DNA from: Patescibacteria group bacterium
GTDB lineage: Bacteria; Patescibacteriota; Minisyncoccia; Phycocordibacterales; DATDWN01
NCBI GenBank assembly: GCA_040384485.1
Contig: JAZKJH010000004.1
Location: 5,928 to 69,927, forward strand
Direction: 5' to 3'
DNA: 64,000 nucleotides
The translations under genes and the position numbers were made by a program. This document shows positions 3,022-59,118 of the stretch, in pieces; the stretch's first letter is position 1, and every line of letters starts with the position of its first letter. The notes under the pieces are model-generated. The model made no database searches. It saw only the letters and a program-made list of their open reading frames with translations, and was not told the origin of the DNA.

Positions 3022-5205
3022 ATGAAAGAAATATTCTTGTCGCCATATGACCCCAAAAGTACTGAATCTCGAATTTACGAACTTTGGGAGCAAAGTGGAT
3101 TCTTTAATCCTGATGTTTGTATAGAAAAAGGTGTTACAAATGCAGATGCAGAGGCATTTAGCATTGTTCTTCCCCCACCAAACGTGACTGGAACACTTCA
3201 TATGGGTAGTGCACTGATGTTGGCGATAGAAGATACCCTAGTTCGACACGCACGCATGCAAGGAAAGAAAACTTTGTGGATTCCTGGCACGGACTCTGCA
3301 GCTATAGCAACGCAGGCAAGAGTTGAAAAAGATATTCAAAAAGCTGAAAAAAAATCCAGACACGATCTAGGTAGAGAAGAGTTACAGAAAAGAATAGACA
3401 TATTTATTGAACAAAACAAAAGCACTATGATAAATCAGATGAGGGCAATGGGATCTTCACTTGATTGGTCTAGATATGCGTACACAATGGACGAGAAAAG
3501 ATACACCGCTGTTATGGAGGCGTTTGTAAAGATGTATGAAGCTGGACTTATATACAGGGGTAACAGAATAGTGAACTGGGATCCAAAAGGACAAACTACT
3601 ATTTCTGATGATGAGATAGTTCATGAAGAAAGAAAATCATTTTTGTATACATTCAAATACTCGAAGGACTTCCCTATCTCTATTTCTACCACCAGACCTG
3701 AAACAAAAGTTGGAGACACCGCTGTAGCTGTGCATCCGGATGATACTCGTTACCAAGCTTTTGTTGGAAAGGAGTACAGTATCAACTTTTGTGACTCCGA
3801 AATTAAAATTAAAATAATTGCGGATGAGAGTGTTGAGAAAGAATTTGGCACAGGAGCTCTAGGAGTGACTCCAGCTCACAGTCAGATAGACTGGGAAATA
3901 GCCGATCGACACAACCTTGAACGTCCACAAGTAATAAACGAGTATGCAAAGATGATGGCTCCTGGAAGATTGTCAGGACTTAAAACTACAGAAGCGAGAG
4001 ATGAGGTAGTAAAGTGGTTAAGAGAGAATGACCTACTAGAAAAGGAAGAAGAAGTCACTCAAAACATAGCGACAGCTGAAAGGACAGGTGGGATAGTTGA
4101 ACCCTTACCAAAGCTTCAATGGTGGATTGATGTTGAAAAGGAGTTCACAATACCCCACTCAAACATCCCGAACATAAAGTCAGGCGATCGAACTAGTCTA
4201 AAAAAAATAATGGAAAACTCTGTTGGAGAAAACGGAGTTAGTTTTGTGACCGAGAGATTTGAAAAGCAGTATATGCACTGGGCCAAAAACCTAAGACCTT
4301 GGTGTATTAGTAGACAGATATGGTTTGGTCACAGAATACCTGTTTGGTATAAAGAAGAAGAAATATATTGTGGTGTTAACCCTCCAACTGAAACTGGCTG
4401 GACCCAAGACTCTGATGTGCTCGACACTTGGTTCTCTTCGGGGTTATGGACTTTCACAACCCTTGGTTGGCCAGAAAAAACCAAAGACTTAGAAACCTAT
4501 CACCCAACCACTATTATCGAGAGTGGGTACGACATACTTCCATTTTGGATTGCTCGAATGATACTTATGAGTGGATTTTTCTTGGGTGAGGTCCCTTTTA
4601 AAACGGTTTACTTGCATGGTTTAGTTCGTGACGGACAAGGCCGAAAAATATCCAAGTCTCTTGGAAACAACATCGACCCCGTTGATATGGCGGAAAAATA
4701 CGGAATGGATGCTGTAAGAGTATCCCTTATAGTAGGTATGTCCCCAGGAACTGACAGCAAAATATCTGAAGAAAAAATCCGAGGATACAAAAACTTTGCC
4801 AACAAACTATGGAATATCGCTAGATATGTACTTACTTCAACAGAAAACTTGACCGATGATACGGTAGAGCTCTCTCCAAAAGATATGGAAATAAAAAATG
4901 AGTTGGATGCTGTAATAACCGATGTAAACCGACACTTTGAAACATATCGAATAGATATGGCTTTTGATACTGTATACCAGTATATTTGGCATAGATTTGC
5001 CGACGAAATAATAGAGGAATCAAAAGTAATTCTCATTGGCACTGACGAAGCTTTGAAAGTATCCAGACAAAAAGTCCTGATACACATCCTCGAAACATCC
5101 CTAAAACTACTCCACCCATTCATGCCATTCGTTACAGAAGAAATTTGGTTAAACCTAAACAAGAAAAATGATAGAATGTTAATGGTCACAAAGTGGCCGC
5201 AATAA
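3022..5205 (+). CDS. valS: Valyl-tRNA synthetase
   Basis: HMGS (HIGH-type) motif, KISKS (KMSKS) motif, and class I editing/anticodon-binding signature blocks. The track ORF starts at 2899, but the ATG at 3022 (MKEIFLSPYDP...) gives the conserved N-terminus. Confidence 0.88.
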   Translation: MKEIFLSPYDPKSTESRIYELWEQSGFFNPDVCIEKGVTNADAEAFSIVLPPPNVTGTLHMGSALMLAIEDTLVRHARMQGKKTLWIPGTDSAAIATQARVEKDIQKAEKKSRHDLGREELQKRIDIFIEQNKSTMINQMRAMGSSLDWSRYAYTMDEKRYTAVMEAFVKMYEAGLIYRGNRIVNWDPKGQTTISDDEIVHEERKSFLYTFKYSKDFPISISTTRPETKVGDTAVAVHPDDTRYQAFVGKEYSINFCDSEIKIKIIADESVEKEFGTGALGVTPAHSQIDWEIADRHNLERPQVINEYAKMMAPGRLSGLKTTEARDEVVKWLRENDLLEKEEEVTQNIATAERTGGIVEPLPKLQWWIDVEKEFTIPHSNIPNIKSGDRTSLKKIMENSVGENGVSFVTERFEKQYMHWAKNLRPWCISRQIWFGHRIPVWYKEEEIYCGVNPPTETGWTQDSDVLDTWFSSGLWTFTTLGWPEKTKDLETYHPTTIIESGYDILPFWIARMILMSGFFLGEVPFKTVYLHGLVRDGQGRKISKSLGNNIDPVDMAEKYGMDAVRVSLIVGMSPGTDSKISEEKIRGYKNFANKLWNIARYVLTSTENLTDDTVELSPKDMEIKNELDAVITDVNRHFETYRIDMAFDTVYQYIWHRFADEIIEESKVILIGTDEALKVSRQKVLIHILETSLKLLHPFMPFVTEEIWLNLNKKNDRMLMVTKWPQ

Positions 5206-6545: not shown

Positions 6546-6671
6546 CTAATCTCCAGCAGTTGGAACCAACTGGTCACAAGTAATTTTTTGCTAAAAATTC
6601 TTGCGACCCCTCCTCGGCACGTCTGCCTCCGGCCTTGCGTTTGGGTCCCTACCCAAACTCACTATCTTGGC
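6546..6671 (-). other. tRNA-Phe-like degenerate fragment / candidate small structured RNA
   Basis: Begins with an exact 12-nt copy of the tRNA-Phe 5' end (GCCAAGATAG), then a D-arm-like stretch GTGAGTTTGGGTAGGG. Contains an 8-bp hairpin GTTTGGGTAGGGACCCAAAC. Locally GC-rich (CCGGAGGCAGACGTGCCGAGGAGGGGTC). No complementary 3' acceptor strand, so it is not a functional tRNA. Confidence 0.2.
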
Positions 6672-9856: not shown

Positions 9857-10459
9857 TCAGATTACCACAAGATCTCGGTTCTTGAGTCTTTTTCTTTTTC
9901 GTCGCGGGAAGCTCTTCCACCTCCTAATTCTCCTGTCCTTTTTTAATTCCATCACGATATCTCTTCCGAGATTGTTGATGGCTTCCTCGGTACTGATGTG
10001 CTCCAGGGAAATAAGAACGTTAGCTTTCATGCCAAACATTCCTGTATCCAACCTGGTTACCTCACCCTTGATTTTTTGATTCAGAGATACATCAATAGAT
10101 GCGTCTGCACCCTCCCAAAAGACAAAAGCGTCCACACCATGCCAGTAATCCAACATGGTCCCCATAGCTAGGTAAATAGCTGGCCTGGACCTGACCCTTG
10201 ATCTCAAAATCCTTCGCGGGAGATGTTTCTCAACCGCGGCTAAGATTTTTTTGGCATACCCCCACCTAGGACTAGGATTGTAGGGGTCATAAACCTCCAG
10301 CTCACCTTCTTCGGTTTCGGTAATGAGTGGAGTATTCATTACTATCTCCAAACATTCATCATAGGGTCTGTAGTCTGGGATGTCTTCAAATTTGTCGTAA
10401 AAGCCGAAAACTCTTTGCTCGAACTGTAACCCTCTGGACACTCCTTGAAGAAATTCCAC
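9857..10459 (-). CDS. Hypothetical protein (200 aa), GC-elevated, with a GTG start and strong SD
   Basis: ORF with local GC about 45-50% versus about 38% for flanking core genes. AAGGAGG lies 6 nt upstream of the GTG start. Basic C-terminal tail (KKDRRIRRWKSFPRRKRKRLKNR). No recognisable domain. Confidence 0.5.
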   Translation of the reverse strand: MEFLQGVSRGLQFEQRVFGFYDKFEDIPDYRPYDECLEIVMNTPLITETEEGELEVYDPYNPSPRWGYAKKILAAVEKHLPRRILRSRVRSRPAIYLAMGTMLDYWHGVDAFVFWEGADASIDVSLNQKIKGEVTRLDTGMFGMKANVLISLEHISTEEAINNLGRDIVMELKKDRRIRRWKSFPRRKRKRLKNRDLVVI

Positions 10460-15957: not shown

Positions 15958-17226
15958 ATGCAAAGACTAAAAAGTCGCGGACTATTGGGCCTAAAATGGC
16001 TCGGGGCGTATTTTGAAACAGATGCAGTCTATATAGCAAAAAGTAGCTTTTGGCTTACCCTTGGGCAAGTCTCCTCTGCTATTATTGCCCTACTCTCTTC
16101 TGTCTTCTTTGCTAACTATGTAGACAAAGACATCTACGGACAATACAAGTTCGTTCTTTCACTAACCGGCATACTCGGAGCGTTATCACTTACTGGGATG
16201 GGCTCTGTAGTGGTCCAAGCAGTAGCGAAGGGCGCAGAAGGCATACTTAAGGACTCTGTACGAGTATCTCTACGCTGGGGTGTTTTTATCTTGTTTTTTG
16301 GATTATGTGGTTCAGGGTACTATTTCTTCAATGACAACAATGTACTTGGAACATCACTACTTATAGCTTCTATCGCTATGCCGCTCATGAACGCTTTTGG
16401 TTTATATGGCGGACTCTTTAGTGGACGAAAAAACTTCAAGTTGTCGACTTTGTATTGGCTAGCTACACAAAGTCTTACAACCATAGGTCTTGTGGTTTCA
16501 GCGATATATACACAAAGTGTAGTCTCACTTATTTTTATATATTTCGCTGTAAGTACTTTATGTGCACTATATGGATATTATCGTGTCATAACAAAATATA
16601 AGCCAAATGAAGTTCGAGATGGAACCATGATCCCCTACGGCAAACACATGAGTCTCATGAACCTTTTTGGTACACTAGCCAACCAATTAGATAAAGTCCT
16701 AGTCTTCCACTACCTTGGTGCTGTAAACCTAGCCATTTATTCTTTCTCCCAAGCCATCCCTGAACAAATCAAAGGAAGTTTTAAAAACCTTTTTGCTATA
16801 GCTCTGCCAAAATACGCTGTGCTAAGCGACCACGACCTACGAAAAAGTATTTTGAAAAAGACCGGCCAACTAACTGGCATCACTCTAATAATAGTTCTGG
16901 GATACATAGTATGTGCACCACTTGTTTTCAAAATACTTTTTCCAAAATACACAGAGGCTGTTATATACTCACAGATCTACGCTCTGGGCCTTTTGGCTAT
17001 CCCAGGTATCTCACTTTTCGCTACCTACTTCCAGCTGAAAAAAGCTACGAGGACTATGTATAAACTAACAGTGATAAGTAACACTGTAACCATCGCACTA
17101 ACTCTTGTTCTAGTATACAAATTTGGACTAAAAGGAGCTGTGATAGAAAACGGTCTGTCTTGGCTCACTATGCTCGCAGTAAACTACTATTTCTTTGCAA
17201 CTCACAAAGAAACTATTTCTTCCTAA
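15958..17226 (+). CDS. Wzx-type oligosaccharide flippase (polysaccharide biosynthesis protein)
   Basis: 422 aa with about 12 TM segments. The N-terminal pattern is typical of the MOP/Wzx family. Confidence 0.6.
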   Translation: MQRLKSRGLLGLKWLGAYFETDAVYIAKSSFWLTLGQVSSAIIALLSSVFFANYVDKDIYGQYKFVLSLTGILGALSLTGMGSVVVQAVAKGAEGILKDSVRVSLRWGVFILFFGLCGSGYYFFNDNNVLGTSLLIASIAMPLMNAFGLYGGLFSGRKNFKLSTLYWLATQSLTTIGLVVSAIYTQSVVSLIFIYFAVSTLCALYGYYRVITKYKPNEVRDGTMIPYGKHMSLMNLFGTLANQLDKVLVFHYLGAVNLAIYSFSQAIPEQIKGSFKNLFAIALPKYAVLSDHDLRKSILKKTGQLTGITLIIVLGYIVCAPLVFKILFPKYTEAVIYSQIYALGLLAIPGISLFATYFQLKKATRTMYKLTVISNTVTIALTLVLVYKFGLKGAVIENGLSWLTMLAVNYYFFATHKETISS

Positions 17227-55323: not shown

Positions 55324-55722
55324 GGGGATGAAAGGTATAGACATTTAAGTCCTTTGACAATGCGCATGACAGAGCTGGAGTTAGCTCTTTAAACCATTCC
55401 AAAACACAAATGCAAAAAATACTTTTGCAAAAGCAGTGCCTTCACCATTTATGGGGAATGCATTCGCACCAGCTTTCGCGTAATCTTTTTTAAGAAAACC
55501 AAACTGGCGGTCTCTCCCCTAAGTCTGTTACGGGAGTTGATTGATATATCACCGGACTATAGAGTCGCTATCGTTTCATAGCGGTTCAGAAAAATAGAAA
55601 CTGGAACTTTATTTATTTTGTCTGTTTTATAGAATAAAGTTCGAGAAAACCAAAACAAACTACGTCATGTAGATCCATTGCCAAAACTTATTTGCACGGG
55701 GGTTCAAATCCTCCCATCTCCA
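55324..55722 (+). ncRNA. ssrA: tmRNA (ssrA)
   Basis: Directly downstream of smpB. The 5' GGGGAUG pairs with the 3' CAUCUCC, giving a G3-U70 acceptor. T-arm GGGGGUUCAAAUCCUCC, discriminator A. Internal tag frame ...GCA UUC GCA CCA GCU UUC GCG UAA (tag ending AFAPAFA). Confidence 0.8.
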
Positions 55723-55726
55723 CAAT

Positions 55727-55757
55727 ATAAAAAATCGCCTACTAGGCGGTTTTTTAT
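55727..55757 (+). terminator. Rho-independent terminator of ssrA
   Basis: A-run, hairpin cgcct-act-aggcg, T6. Embedded in a 49-nt palindrome (55718-55766) that includes the tmRNA 3' end. Confidence 0.6.
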
Positions 55758-55940
55758 ATTGTGGAGTGGAGTAAACCAACTGCTTGGTTTACGTGAGGAT
55801 TTGAAAGACGGAACTATATTTTTTCACCAGAAAAAATATAGTGAGTCGGGGTCGAGAGTACTTAGTGCTCGCAAGGTGTAATCACCTGAGAACACTTAGT
55901 AACTCGTGACCAATTCTCGGCTTCTACACAAAAATTTCAC

Positions 55941-55970
55941 AAAACTCCCCTCGAAAGGGAGTTTTGTTTT
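55941..55970 (+). terminator. Rho-independent terminator
   Basis: aactccc-tcgaaa-gggagtt followed by a T-run. Immediately followed by TTGACA (55975-55980). Confidence 0.5.
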
Positions 55971-56042
55971 TAGTTTGACAAGACCATATATTTATATAGT
56001 ATGCAAGGCAGACTTGATCTTCACAATTAGGAGAAAAGACAT

Positions 56043-57716
56043 ATGTTCAAACATTCCGTTCGTGCCTTAGCTTTTCATCACGAAAAAGGTTACGAAGCTC
56101 AACGAGAACTTGCACTCAATTTCGCTGGAACTGGAGGACGCATTGCAACAATGGAAGACATTGTTCATGCATGTTGCAATTCACAAAACATTAAAGACTT
56201 TGTGTGGAGTCGTACAATCATTACCAGCTCATACTTATTTGCTGGGTGGAACAACACAGTACCCACACTCGTATTTGCACACGGCCTCAACATTCAACCA
56301 GTAACGTACCCGACGAGGTACGGAAATGAATACCGTATTGGCCAACCTGTCTTCGAGGCTTTGTTGGATGGTAAATTCGGACATGTCGAATCAGTCAACT
56401 TGTTAGAATACAAAAACAAGTCAAAACATGTGCGTGGCTCAAATCGTTATACTTACGAGGTTGCCCACCAGGACCCAATCATTCGTGGATTCTTTGGTCG
56501 ACAAGTGGATGTATTTCTAAACCACTATCACAACCTCACTCAAGACTGGCTTAAGGATGCAAGCCTCGAAGAACAGAAGGAAGCAGTCCTCCTGATCAAC
56601 CGAATCTACGAGATTTACAACAACAAGCCAGGGAAACAAGAAAGTTTCTCTAACATTCCACGAGATTACGCAAAAGCGTACCCACTAACAAAGGAATCGC
56701 ACGGACTATATGTTGACCATAACAAGCAAGACAAACACATTGCCTGTGGTATGGACTTCAGCACTTCGACCAACAGTGGCATCGACGATCTCGGTGGACC
56801 AGCTTACTACATAATTGGGGTCCGAGGCGAAGAACCCCTCACAAAAGTAGCTCCTGACTTCCGAAGTAGTATCTCAAAGGTTAAGGAGAATTGGCCACAT
56901 TTTGTGCAACCACTCGTCCAAGTTCCTAATGACCCCTACATCGGCATCAAACCCGATGGAAGTACTGAGCGACCTTACTATCTACCGGCCTTGATGCGGA
57001 TAGGGGAATCTGAATATGAACCCCGAGTAACCGGGCGTATTCTTGATAACGGCACCGGCTCGATAATGCCAGAGTTCAGGGTCAGATCATGCAAAATGAT
57101 AGGAACCCTAACTAAAATCTGTTATCAAGGTACAGGTCGTGAAGCTGGGAGCGGGTACATTGGTTACCCGTATCAAGGCCAATGGGAAGCGGCTCTCAAG
57201 GCACTACCGAAAGAAGCTAATGCTATCGCATTCGGTGGCTCGTCTCACCACAACGGAAAAATCGAAGTGGACACCGTATTCTATAAACTGGAGTTGGATA
57301 AAGAACCGTTCCACATTCTCATAAAATGTGGGGACAAATTCTTCACACAATACAACGACGAGAACCGTCCGACACAACAACCGCACATGTTGGTGACAGA
57401 AGTAACGGAACTTGACCAAAAACCAAGTCTCCATATTCCGGATGATGTGCATCGTTTGTGCAATAACCATCTAAAAGAATGGCCAGTCCTTGCATATTTA
57501 ATTGCAAATGCACCGGAAAAAGCCAATGCTATGTGGATTGAAAATCAATCAACTCACTATAGTGATAAAGCTGGTAAGAACATCACAACTGTGTCAGTGA
57601 GATACTACCATGTGGCCCTTGGCGACAAAGCTTTCCGACCATTCACAGAAATCCGGTCAGACTTCGACTGGGAACTTGAACGGAGAACTGAAGCTAACAT
57701 GCTCTCGATAATTTGA
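56043..57716 (+). CDS. Hypothetical protein (557 aa), GC-elevated island gene A
   Basis: Long ORF with AGGAG 9 nt upstream of the ATG. Local GC about 45-52%. No signal peptide and no motif I can assign (no P-loop, no HExxH). Confidence 0.6.
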   Translation: MFKHSVRALAFHHEKGYEAQRELALNFAGTGGRIATMEDIVHACCNSQNIKDFVWSRTIITSSYLFAGWNNTVPTLVFAHGLNIQPVTYPTRYGNEYRIGQPVFEALLDGKFGHVESVNLLEYKNKSKHVRGSNRYTYEVAHQDPIIRGFFGRQVDVFLNHYHNLTQDWLKDASLEEQKEAVLLINRIYEIYNNKPGKQESFSNIPRDYAKAYPLTKESHGLYVDHNKQDKHIACGMDFSTSTNSGIDDLGGPAYYIIGVRGEEPLTKVAPDFRSSISKVKENWPHFVQPLVQVPNDPYIGIKPDGSTERPYYLPALMRIGESEYEPRVTGRILDNGTGSIMPEFRVRSCKMIGTLTKICYQGTGREAGSGYIGYPYQGQWEAALKALPKEANAIAFGGSSHHNGKIEVDTVFYKLELDKEPFHILIKCGDKFFTQYNDENRPTQQPHMLVTEVTELDQKPSLHIPDDVHRLCNNHLKEWPVLAYLIANAPEKANAMWIENQSTHYSDKAGKNITTVSVRYYHVALGDKAFRPFTEIRSDFDWELERRTEANMLSII

Positions 57717-57877
57717 TACGCAATGCAACACCCCGTGTAGCCAGAAATGGTCTATGCGGGTTTTTATTTTTCATAACTCATGACATTTCTCCTTAATATA
57801 AAGAACCCCCCACAAAGTGGTTTTTGCTTGCTTGACATAACTAAGCAATATGACAACATACCATCTGGAGGTTACAG

Positions 57878-58333
57878 ATGCCGCAATTAACAAAAGGGGT
57901 TTACGGGACCGAGTTCAACGCGACTCAAAACGCACCGCTTGGACTTCGGTGTGGGCAAATGAAAGCTGGAAACAAAATTACCCACAACCACGGGTGGTAC
58001 AACAAGTTTGGAGAAAGACTGGGCTTTGGGGATCTGTCAGCAGACGATTTCCAAAGAATCATGACTGAGATTGAAGGAGACGAACTCTTCATTACACTAG
58101 GTGAAGAAGACAGTCACCATGGTCTCATGAGCGACCACCCAGAACTGGAGTACGATGCCCCGGGAGTGGATTACATTGTCCAGCATTGCAGGTATGTTGT
58201 ACGGCGTGGCCAATGTTTGCGAGTTGATGAGGTCCGACCAGATAACTCTTTGTTCCTCCATAACGGAATTAATTTTACCATCACCTCGAAAGAGGGTGTA
58301 AGAAAAATTCTGACGGAGCATTCAAGCAGATAG
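57878..58333 (+). CDS. Hypothetical protein (151 aa), GC-elevated island gene B
   Basis: ORF with GGAGG 8 nt upstream of the ATG, GC about 48%. Cysteine/histidine-containing segments (LRCGQ, HNHGW, HCRYVVRRGQC). Confidence 0.55.
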   Translation: MPQLTKGVYGTEFNATQNAPLGLRCGQMKAGNKITHNHGWYNKFGERLGFGDLSADDFQRIMTEIEGDELFITLGEEDSHHGLMSDHPELEYDAPGVDYIVQHCRYVVRRGQCLRVDEVRPDNSLFLHNGINFTITSKEGVRKILTEHSSR

Positions 58334-58354
58334 TTTCCAGTCCTATAAAAATTG

Positions 58355-58386
58355 ATGCACCCCGAAATTTCGGGGTGTTTTTTATT
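58355..58386 (+). terminator. Rho-independent terminator after island gene B
   Basis: gcaccccgaaatttcggggtg followed by T7. Confidence 0.6.
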
Positions 58387-58504
58387 GCAGATAAAATTAC
58401 TTGACTTTTATCCTGGATTAATATATTCTATTTAGACGGGTCGCAAGACTCGTAGCAGAAACTAGACGCAAGTCTGGTTTTTGTTTTGCCTGAATATTTT
58501 ATAT

Positions 58505-58531
58505 ATAAAAAACACCCGACTAGCGGGTGTT
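58505..58531 (-). terminator. Terminator for the 58549-59118 gene
   Basis: acacccg-acta-cgggtgt preceded by an A-run (a T-run on the minus strand). Confidence 0.5.
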
Positions 58532-58548
58532 TCTTAAACTCAAATAAC

Positions 58549-59118
58549 TTATTGGAAAGTTACGTAAGTTGGCTTAACAAGAACCTTTTCGTCTGTTACC
58601 CATGGGCGACAGTCGTAGTTGGCATTCGTAGGATTTGTTCCTAGAACCATAGCTGAAGAAACATCAGCAGGGATCAAGTTTGTAAACTCAGAAATAGACT
58701 TTGGCTGTGTAACTGTACCTGTTGGCATTCCCTCTTTCCATGAGTAAAGGTTCAATCCATCATAAACAACCATTGTTGCTACCGTGTTTCCACCTGTTCT
58801 TGTTCTAAACTCTGCTCGCATTTTTCCTTTCGAAACATAGATAGTGTTTTTCGTAACTACGTTCGAGTTTGACTGCTCATAATCACACTGAAAGTTACCG
58901 TTCACTGAAAGTAAACTTTTTGGGGTTCCAGTGTTAGTGCCTGTATTGGTACCAGTATTAGCCCCAGTGTTTGTGTTAGTGCCTGTATTGTTATTATTTT
59001 CAGTACTAGTTGCATTGTTGTTTGTGGAATCCACCGCAACATTGTCTTCTTTTGTAAGCAACCAAACACCTAGAACTACAACTAAAATAGCCAACCCTAC
59101 CCATAATATATTTTTCAT
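58549..59118 (-). CDS. Secreted/anchored hypothetical protein with an NTGT low-complexity repeat
   Basis: N-terminal TM/signal, a TGTNTNTGANTGTNTGTNTGT repeat, two Cys residues. Confidence 0.5.
   Translation of the reverse strand: MKNILWVGLAILVVVLGVWLLTKEDNVAVDSTNNNATSTENNNNTGTNTNTGANTGTNTGTNTGTPKSLLSVNGNFQCDYEQSNSNVVTKNTIYVSKGKMRAEFRTRTGGNTVATMVVYDGLNLYSWKEGMPTGTVTQPKSISEFTNLIPADVSSAMVLGTNPTNANYDCRPWVTDEKVLVKPTYVTFQ

Follow-up and report, generated by a model that had tools for sequence, protein, structure and literature searches.

A horizontally acquired block downstream of ssrA in a Patescibacteria genome carries a gene with a predicted AvpA-type C-type-lectin-fold domain

The DNA analysed here is a stretch of 64,000 nucleotides from a Patescibacteria group bacterium, in the following called the window. 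Near its right end two open reading frames, ORF1 followed by ORF2, lie downstream of the tmRNA gene, both on the + strand. The features of this part of the window are:

55324-55723, + strand: ssrA (tmRNA) gene (ARAGORN; Rfam RF00023, 101.8 bits, E 8.9e-40), a native landmark with the block downstream of it
55718-55766, + strand: ssrA terminator within a 24-nt inverted repeat (I1, 96% complementary) which includes the tmRNA 3' end
55761-55925, + strand: conserved, structured trailer RNA element of a kind that trails tRNA/tmRNA genes, native; core hairpin 55838-55916
55939-55967, + strand: predicted intrinsic terminator closing the trailer RNA unit, directly upstream of the ORF1 cassette (terminator scan: 11-13 pairs, then a T-run)
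55975-56042, + strand: predicted ORF1 promoter TTGACA-16 nt-TAGTAT (promoter scan, 10 of 12 positions), short conserved leader GCAAGGCAGAC and Shine-Dalgarno sequence (SD) AGGAG at 56029-56033
56043-57716, + strand: ORF1, 557 aa, with a predicted AvpA-type CLec domain and two small alpha/beta modules
57732-57775, + strand: predicted intrinsic terminator of ORF1 (hairpin 57732-57760, then a U-run), 3' end of the cassette
57867-58333, + strand: ORF2, 151 aa (ORF 57878-58333) with SD GGAGG at 57867-57871; an ORFan, probably coding
58357-58385, + strand: predicted intrinsic terminator of ORF2 (hairpin 58357-58378; terminator scan: 9 pairs, 6 of them GC, then a T-run)
58401-58497, + strand: promoter-like TTGACT-17 nt-TATTCT (promoter scan) followed by a putative 70-nt small RNA
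58506-58536: bidirectional terminator common to p189 (inverted repeat I18), right edge of the insertion
58549-59118, - strand: p189, a native gene

From this layout the insert should consist of self-contained transcription units and not of an operon, and the first unit, from about 55975 to 57775, is predicted to be a complete cassette of promoter, SD, gene and terminator. In the nearest copy of ORF1 (locus L097) the shared DNA starts exactly at the -35 box and ends past the ORF1 terminator, which is conserved there, and short of ORF2. The leader GCAAGGCAGAC is also present in two other loci (L001 and L007). An SD ahead of the gene and a hairpin with a T-run downstream of it were seen in all homologues checked; of the 95 genes neighbouring ORF1 homologues, only 21 have an SD. 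An earlier sequence-only reading of the window had already assigned a terminator to each of the two ORFs, and the hairpins at 57732-57760, with its U-run, and at 58357-58378 agree with this.

The same reading could place neither protein in a known family, which is at variance with what we find for the N-terminal half of ORF1. Residues 1 to about 290 are predicted to form an AvpA-type C-type-lectin-fold (CLec) domain, and residues from about 340 to 557 two small alpha/beta modules. AvpA (PDB 5IOO) is a DGR variable protein of Nanoarchaeota (Handa et al., 2016; PMC5006420). An alignment of 10 ORF1 sequences gave no match to the PDB sequences and a broader profile was needed; the profile of 22 family members gave 5ioo as its sole match (E 2.3e-7). 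The motifs GxxVVVYAH, HPxxxPFxG and RFxGV of the AvpA family, located on beta3, insert 4 and beta5 (PMC5006420), correspond to PTLVFAHG, DPIIRGFFG and YIIGVRG in the ORF1 family. At the level of profiles and motifs, the N-terminal half of ORF1 is a true homologue of AvpA, and both proteins come from "microbial dark matter" organisms. It should be noted that the two proteins differ considerably: ORF1 is bacterial (CPR) and has 557 residues compared to the 255 of AvpA, identity is about 15%, and about 270 extra residues make up the two alpha/beta modules. Unlike AvpA, ORF1 is accompanied by no VR/TR pair, reverse transcriptase or Avd that we could find; a DGR reverse transcriptase and Avd were sought within the block, and a repeat search and word-7 blastn, run over the 64 kb and 13 homologue loci, found no repeat of any part of ORF1, and thus no template repeat. 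The VR-equivalent segment TNSGIDDLGGPAYY is conserved rather than variable, being nearly invariant in 8 of 10 homologues, among sequences which are 43-63% identical. ORF1 appears to be a non-diversifying relative of AvpA, with a conserved VR-equivalent and no TR in the 64-kb window; non-DGR homologues of AvpA had already been noted in Woesearchaeota (Handa et al., 2016; PMC5006420).

Searches with other collections gave little. Pfam has no match for ORF1 or ORF2, and PADLOC no family for either protein at E up to 1. PHROGs gave two weak matches to ORF1, both to families of unknown function (E 0.006 and 0.12). Foldseek of ORF1 against the PDB and the BFVD viral structures found nothing significant, and no effector domain (nuclease, NADase, pore or kinase) could be recognised in the protein.

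The ORF1 family is rare and belongs to the Patescibacteria. The subfamily has about 13-16 members, and all homologues that carry an organism name come from MAGs of Patescibacteria, Parcubacteria or Uhrbacteria; the expectation that the nearest homologues would point to a donor outside the CPR finds no support. Each of the 12 other ORF1-family loci has different neighbours. A sister family of Patescibacteria hypothetical proteins of about 420-460 aa (about 240 clusters, e.g., HYT45_02880 of Ca. Uhrbacteria) has an N-terminal AvpA-type domain like that of ORF1 and one C-terminal module, profile matches covering positions 5-427, and its genes are likewise solitary with a strong SD and their own terminator. 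The sister family differs from ORF1 in lacking the second C-terminal module, in its low identity to ORF1 (22-26%) and in being far commoner than the ORF1 subfamily. No match to ORF1 was found by tblastn in the GenBank phage collection or the PLSDB plasmids, nor by a scan of IMG/VR with the ORF1 alignment. One homologue, however, resides on a 5,696-bp circular replicon (found as identical circular permutations) which also carries Rep, a serine recombinase and the Shedu protein SduA, and it lies 70 nt downstream of the SduA gene.

These neighbourhoods bear on the possibility that ORF1 alone is a single-gene CPR system of defence or counter-defence, in which the fixed CLec domain senses a component of a phage or mobile element and ORF2 is unrelated. 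In L009, L096, L004 and L003 defence genes lie no more than two genes away from the homologue, and L007 has an HTH_VI-like gene. The neighbours are a type III MTase and PDC-S18 in L004, a UvrD/GajB-like helicase in L003 and, 1 kb from the homologue in L096, a reverse transcriptase which best matches retron type VI models (E 4.4e-30). In all, 4-5 of about 11 independent contexts have defence genes, including the Shedu gene directly adjacent on the small plasmid; this is a raw count from few loci, with no background rate to set it against. The distribution of ORF1 homologues is patchy, at hot spots close to genes for tRNA and tmRNA, the gene forms a cassette complete in itself whose promoter and SD are strong, and CLec folds are recognised as scaffolds for binding (PMC5006420). 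Like Shedu (SduA) and other single-gene defence cassettes, ORF1 is monocistronic. On the other hand it has no similarity in sequence or fold to SduA or to any PADLOC model and no nuclease or other effector domain, PADLOC and PHROGs give no signal, and elsewhere the contexts are purely housekeeping (Gmk/PfkB in L006; the neighbourhoods of RpoC or RuvC for the sister family). We regard a role of ORF1 alone in defence as possible, although rather unlikely.

The composition of both genes is foreign to the window. GC is 0.451 in ORF1, 0.474 in ORF2 and 0.437 in the block 55756-58545 compared to 0.367 in the remaining window, and in the GC-window plot the block is the maximum of all 2790-nt windows on the contig (mean 0.369, sd 0.028). 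The jump to 45-52% GC described in the sequence-only reading is real as an elevation, but its upper figure is too high, the peak of 300-nt windows being 0.49. GC3 is 0.44 in ORF1 and 0.49 in ORF2 compared to 0.317 in the pooled native genes, and synonymous codon usage is atypical (z = -2.7 for ORF1 and -2.8 for ORF2 against 32 native genes). Crude ORF calling gave 53 frames in the window; an SD of at least 5 nt precedes only 3, and two of these three are ORF1 and ORF2. Strong SDs, AGGAG and GGAGG, rare elsewhere in the window, had also been pointed out before; AGGAG lies 9 nt ahead of the ATG of ORF1, and GGAGG lies 6 nt ahead of the ATG of ORF2.

ORF2 has no relatives. In 5.8 billion proteins it matched only itself, and no homologue was found in the 98 retrieved loci; a 147-aa ORF downstream of the L007 homologue was considered as a counterpart and rejected, having no similarity to ORF2. 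The frame nevertheless looks like a gene, with GC of 0.56/0.37/0.49 by codon position and the best fit of all six frames to the codon table of ORF1; an ORF of at least 151 aa arose by chance in 5 of 2000 shuffles. Its AF2 model, made from the single sequence, is unusable (pLDDT 37.6). On these sequence properties ORF2 is probably a coding ORFan.

It had been proposed that ORF1 and ORF2 make up a two-gene module of the anti-phage defence or toxin/immunity type, carried as cargo of a decayed ssrA island. The pair does adjoin ssrA, its composition is foreign, ORF1 and ORF2 are alike in codon usage and GC, and the ORF1 homologues have the defence neighbours described above (Shedu SduA on the plasmid, the type VI retron-like reverse transcriptase, the type III MTase with PDC-S18 and the UvrD/GajB-like helicase). 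However, ORF2 is absent at the 12 other ORF1-family loci as well as from the 5.8 billion proteins, the genes are separated by a 161-nt spacer with the ORF1 terminator hairpin and its U-run, and a terminator follows each of them. The homology shared with the nearest ORF1 copy stops at the ORF1 terminator, ahead of ORF2, neither protein is matched by PADLOC or Pfam, and ORF1 has no recognisable effector domain. The proposed pairing is not supported by these results, and a two-gene module is in our opinion very unlikely. Being adjacent and similar in composition, the two genes may have been acquired jointly or may form a lineage-specific partnership.

The insertion site was examined by comparison with relatives, whose tmRNAs are 74-77% identical to that of the window. 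The gene order FtsH-SmpB-ssrA-p189-p211-InfC-L35-L20 is common to the window and three relatives (L011, L016 and L038). In these three about 46 nt separate the tmRNA from the p189 homologue, compared to 2825 nt in the window, and a single hairpin resembling a bidirectional terminator is all that lies between the two genes. Since the relatives keep the gene order with about 46 nt after ssrA, the block is an insertion, and the empty site looked for in relatives is found in all three with the same synteny. The 3' flank of ssrA is variable among relatives, where the gap measures 46 to 1627 nt, and in L017 an ORF named by eye from its translation as tyrosine-recombinase-like lies 1.5 kb downstream of ssrA. 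Foreign DNA of 2.6-2.8 kb, starting at about 55970, was acquired horizontally at this variable hot spot downstream of ssrA, as the sequence-only reading had held; the empty sites and the atypical GC, codons and SDs agree with it. The date of the insertion is loose because SmpB identity to the closest relatives reaches only about 81%.

Of the limits first given for the block, 55756-58545, the left edge has to be moved, since 55761-55925 is the native RNA element and the foreign DNA begins at about 55970. The inverted repeat of the ssrA terminator has the same arrangement in L082 and L056, and its arms in L082, CTCCACCA and TGGTGGAG, differ from those of the window, CTCCACAA and TTGTGGAG, by a compensatory change. 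The trailer RNA element that follows has a counterpart in L082, likewise downstream of the tmRNA, with 88% identity over 73 nt. Compensatory changes occur in 11 of 32 predicted pairs and the fold z-score is -7.6. Of the 23 matches to a covariance model of the element, 19 have a same-strand tRNA or tmRNA gene no more than 221 nt away. To judge from this conservation the element is native and outside the foreign DNA. At the other end of the block the putative small RNA would fold into two GCAA-capped hairpins with a U-run (fold z-score -7.35); no homologue was found in the retrieved loci, and a search for antisense targets gave none. Rfam has no + strand family for either RNA.

Even with up to 3 mismatches allowed, the 25 nt of the tmRNA 3' end are single copy in the 64 kb, and there is no attL/attR. 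The block contains no recombinase or integrase (no Pfam match, and no match in tblastn with serine and tyrosine recombinases), and its intergenic DNA holds no remnants of Rep or a recombinase; the absence of integrase, transposase and attR from the earlier description is upheld for the block and the 64 kb. Three 30-nt terminator-like repeats (at 55725, 57796 and 58503; 77% identity) were considered as att scars of serial integration and rejected because ATATAAARAAY followed by a hairpin is the general terminator style of this genome; the motif, which appears in the flanking repeats as ATATAAAAAAY hairpins, has 11 copies in the window compared to 0.7 expected. Like the classical ssrA 3'-end islands (such as the P4-like or CP4-57-type and the VPI-type), the block is DNA of foreign composition directly 3' of ssrA, missing in relatives, at a site which is variable among them and in L017 has the tyrosine-recombinase-like ORF. 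The insert of the window differs from these islands in its size of only about 2.6 kb, in having neither an integrase nor a duplicated ssrA 3' segment, and in its position past the ssrA terminator and the native trailer RNA, outside the tmRNA 3' end.

It could be argued that the block is ancestral and was deleted in the relatives, or that it is a chimera of assembly or binning, as the contig comes from a MAG and the nearest relatives, at about 81% SmpB identity, are several events apart. This is most improbable: the native synteny is unbroken on both sides of the block on one contig with the junctions coinciding with terminators, at least 7 relatives lack ORF1 and ORF2 at the ssrA site, GC, GC3, codon usage and SDs are all foreign, and ORF1 homologues occur in unrelated contexts and on a plasmid. 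The chance that ORF1 is, or recently was, an active DGR target, with TR and reverse transcriptase elsewhere in the genome, is close to negligible: its homology to AvpA, the established wide occurrence of DGRs in groundwater "microbial dark matter", the existence of remote targets (PMC5006420) and the reverse transcriptase 1 kb from the L096 homologue are outweighed by the lack of a TR-like repeat in the window and 13 homologue loci, the nearly invariant VR-equivalent, the fit of the L096 enzyme, the only RVT among the listed neighbours at homologue loci, to retron type VI, and the non-DGR AvpA homologues already documented.

The reading which we favour, and consider probable, is that the block consists of horizontally acquired single-gene cassettes in which ORF1 encodes a fixed AvpA-type protein and ORF2 is separate. 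Our best guess, from fold homology, is that ORF1 would be a cytoplasmic ligand-binding or sensor protein of fixed specificity, perhaps with a link to defence. Its ligand would bind to the CLec face, and the two C-terminal alpha/beta modules might serve oligomerisation or output. Small replicons, for example the 5.7-kb circle with Rep, serine recombinase and Shedu, could carry the cassette from one CPR genome to another, the recombinase acting in trans or having since been lost. ORF2 would then be a separate, probably coding ORFan from a source of similar composition, with no sign of acting jointly with ORF1. A bolder version, which is quite unlikely, is that ORF1 and the sister family are CPR-specific stand-alone immune or recognition proteins derived from a DGR variable protein, with the binding site "frozen" on one target, and that they are spread as promoter-SD-gene-terminator cassettes by tiny rolling-circle/serine-recombinase replicons into hot spots close to tRNA and tmRNA genes. 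If true, this would be a new route to the domestication and horizontal sharing of binders evolved by DGRs.

As an event the island is nothing out of the ordinary. It offers a clean and checkable case in which a streamlined CPR genome has recently gained genes: an empty site is known, the translation signals are foreign and there is a candidate for the vehicle. The 5.7-kb circular replicon and the tRNA/tmRNA trailer RNA motif are independent leads. An uncharacterised Patescibacteria family of about 250 clusters, for which there is no Pfam model, is placed as kin of the archaeal AvpA, so that a variant of the AvpA-type CLec domain, fixed, non-diversifying and with extra domains, appears to exist in bacteria too. 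If the family has a role as sensor or in defence, scaffolds of the DGR type would be tied to horizontally traded immunity in unculturable organisms.

The block at 55756-58545, between the tmRNA gene (ssrA) and the native p189 gene (58549-59118, - strand), contains two open reading frames:

55324-55723, + strand, tmRNA (ssrA), a standard gene (ARAGORN, Rfam)
56043-57716, + strand, ORF1, 557 aa, 3' of the tmRNA
57878-58333, + strand, ORF2, 151 aa, 3' of ORF1

The GC content of the block is 0.437 against 0.367 across the remaining window, the highest among all 2790-nt windows (mean 0.369, sd 0.028). The genes themselves have a GC of 0.451 (ORF1) and 0.474 (ORF2), a GC3 of 0.44 and 0.49 compared to 0.317 in native genes, and an atypical synonymous codon usage (z = -2.7 and -2.8, with 32 native genes as reference). 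ORF1 has the Shine-Dalgarno (SD) sequence AGGAG 9 nt, and ORF2 GGAGG 6 nt, 5' of the start; of the window's 53 crude ORF calls, just one other has an SD of at least 5 nt. Each of the two ORFs is followed by a separate terminator. The GC jump, strong SDs and own terminators pointed out in the sequence-only reading are thus real and stronger than chance, except that its GC range of about 45-52% is too high at the upper end, as 300-nt bins peak at 0.49. The third call with a strong SD (AGGAGG; 9857-10459, - strand; GC3 0.49) may be a mis-called start, in surroundings which resemble a ribosomal-protein/rpoA cluster by gene sizes alone. No gene in the window deviates more in synonymous codon usage than 15958-17226, which is on the + strand amid mostly - strand genes.

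The SmpB relatives were scanned with one genome per species, giving 80 loci. The closest relatives (SmpB 74-81%, FtsH 82-87%, tmRNA about 77% identical) share with the window the gene order FtsH-SmpB-ssrA-p189-p211-InfC-L35-L20-RNase J. In the relatives L011, L016 and L038 a lone terminator hairpin of about 46 nt fills the space from the tmRNA to the p189 homologue, where the window has 2825 nt; these empty sites support the proposed horizontal acquisition, and the inserted DNA was acquired horizontally. The corresponding site holds 146 nt in L018, 265 nt in L040 and, in L019, about 1 kb that includes an unrelated ORF of 280 aa (2157-2999). By reading translations by eye, not by family search, we labelled a secreted-looking protein in the 1.3-1.6 kb after ssrA in L025 and L029, an additional small GIY-YIG-like ORF in L025 (9104-9373), and a tyrosine-recombinase-like ORF 1.5 kb 3' of ssrA in L017 (10532-11419). 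With contents that differ from relative to relative, the region 3' of ssrA is a hot spot of variation throughout the lineage. A tiny ORF is seen just after ssrA in L040 (9089-9265). The tmRNA 3' end is not repeated anywhere in the window, and the block contains no recombinase remnant, in agreement with the earlier failure to detect an integrase or attR. The block is an ssrA-flank island, a known kind.

The island had been taken to start directly after the ssrA terminator. The foreign DNA stands, the left edge does not: 55761-55925 is a structured RNA (fold z = -7.6) which matches a segment of L082 (9284-9447; 88% identity over 73 nt) and is also found in L056, a Campbellbacteria genome (9098-9187), in both about 110 nt 3' of the tmRNA, and in L017 3' of tRNA-Ile (5119-5195). 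The left 170 nt of the block are therefore native and the foreign DNA starts at about 55970. Compensatory changes occur in 11 of the 32 predicted pairs. Across the 1.28 Mb of loci fetched, a covariance model picks up 23 copies; 19 have a tRNA or tmRNA gene in the same orientation 46-221 nt away, and mostly lie on its downstream side. The window has a second copy (6567-6618, - strand), and a copy at L001:7832-7891 adjoins an ORF1 homologue. The consensus is YGAGNCGGGGUCGCG - stem/loop - CGUGACC (50-90 nt, longer after ssrA), and the motif is found in many Paceibacteria-type genomes. No + strand match was found in Rfam; the motif is an unannotated conserved RNA with covariation support and no Rfam family. 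The tmRNA 3' acceptor end lies inside a 24-nt inverted repeat across the terminator (55718-55766; CTCCACAATAT...ATATTGTGGAG), and L082 (9150-9225) retains the pairing through compensatory change (CTCCACCA / TGGTGGAG), which suggests a conserved precursor helix in which the tmRNA 3' end pairs with the trailer.

The pair had been read as a two-gene system. The distribution of the two genes lends this no support, as ORF1 homologues are solitary with differing neighbours and ORF2 has no homologue. Full-length ORF1 relatives number only 10 among 5.8 billion proteins (37-100% identity), and no two loci have matching neighbours, among them:

L001, DUF2807 and tRNA-Glu
L003, TraG/HerA-like ATPase and UvrD helicase
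L004, type III RM genes and a peptidoglycan-binding protein
L006/L094, Gmk and PfkB
L007, small hypothetical proteins and an HTH protein

DNA homology to the closest copy (L097, 63% amino acid identity) runs from exactly the -35 box (window 55975) to the terminator T-run (about 57770). In every ORF1 homologue checked, a strong SD precedes the gene and a hairpin with T-run follows it; among neighbouring genes, only 21 of 95 have an SD of at least 5 nt. ORF1 moves alone and has a cassette structure. A promoter and short 5' leader (TTGACAAGAC...TGCAAGGCAGAC) are conserved along with the gene in the window (55975-56042) and upstream of the L001, L007 and L097 copies. Sister-family genes have a conserved leader of their own, a hairpin beside the SD (CCTAAAACCCCTAAACGGGGAAAGGAG; L091-L093:6960-7000). 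In each of two genomes (L001:139-3381, L093:11507-14369) a PK-like/unknown/Ser-Thr kinase gene trio is located within about 3-4 kb of a family member, which may be a coincidence.

One homologue, P0005, is found on 5751-nt contigs (L008, L009, L010) with 55-nt terminal overlaps. Their sequences differ only in where a single 5,696-bp circle has been opened. This circle, identical from several assemblies, codes for a rolling-circle Rep (PF23343), a 75-aa ORF, Shedu SduA, the ORF1 homologue and a large serine recombinase. The GC of the homologue is 0.60 against 0.47 elsewhere on the circle. The circle may be a small plasmid or an integrative element, and is a plausible vehicle for the cassette.

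No ORF2 homologue was found among the 5.8 billion proteins or in 98 fetched loci, and no match in Pfam, PADLOC or PHROGs; its structure model (pLDDT 37.6) is unusable. ORF2 is probably coding, judged from its SD, ATG and terminator, its GC by codon position (0.56/0.37/0.49), a frame which is the best of six under the ORF1 codon table, and the rarity of equally long ORFs (5 of 2000 shuffles). Nothing points to a functional link with ORF1. At 58401-58497 (+ strand), between the terminators of ORF2 and p189, a promoter-like site precedes a putative RNA of 70 nt, which has two hairpins capped by GCAA and a U-run (z = -7.35); a search for a homologue or antisense target found none.

ORF1 had been placed in no known family, which must be corrected. 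Exhaustive HMMER searches gave 239 representatives, including the Patescibacteria sister family of about 440 aa, and a profile of 22 sequences (ORF1 and sister families) matched in the whole PDB solely AvpA (5IOO; E 2.3e-7), the C-type-lectin-fold (CLec) variable protein of a Nanoarchaeota diversity-generating retroelement (DGR). The alignment spans residues 31-161 of AvpA together with the ARFVGVRG strand. The AvpA-family motifs GxxVVVYAH, HPxxxPFxG and RFxGV (PMC5006420) have the ORF1 counterparts PTLVFAHG, DPIIRGFFG and YIIGVRG. At the level of profile and motifs the homology of ORF1 and AvpA is confirmed, and ORF1 belongs with the CLec proteins of AvpA-type fold. A relative of the sister-family CLec domain (38% identity over residues 15-233) is found at the end of a high-GC contig classed as viral (L098:8001-8693; IMG/VR UViG_3300037010_002542), so occurrence of this domain is not limited strictly to CPR.

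In the DNA covered, ORF1 is not a DGR target: no part of it is repeated within the 64-kb window, the block has no reverse transcriptase (RT), and the segment equivalent to the variable region, which in AvpA immediately precedes RFxGV (TNSGIDDLGGPAYY in ORF1), is nearly invariant across homologues with an overall identity of only 43-63%. Nor are parts of the homologues repeated inside their own loci in any of 13 loci; diversification machinery, in the sense of such repeats and of an RT in the block, is absent. The only RT near a homologue (L096:4007-4975, - strand), 1 kb upstream of it, matches retron type VI models best (PADLOC RT_VI, E 4.4e-30). An HTH_VI-like protein is encoded upstream of the homologue in L007 (4849-5304, + strand). 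AvpA homologues outside DGRs are already known from Woesearchaeota (PMC5006420).

A role in defence or counter-defence is unlikely. By raw count, 4-5 of some 11 contexts have defence genes (Shedu, retron-like RT, type III RM + PDC-S18, UvrD/GajB-like helicase, HTH_VI-like gene) one or two genes away from the homologue, but ORF1 has no effector domain and no PADLOC match. ORF1 can be described as an AvpA-like protein of the non-DGR kind, enlarged by further domains. No N-terminal hydrophobic segment is seen, and the protein would be cytoplasmic; its CLec face would bind a fixed ligand, and its C-terminal modules may serve assembly or output.
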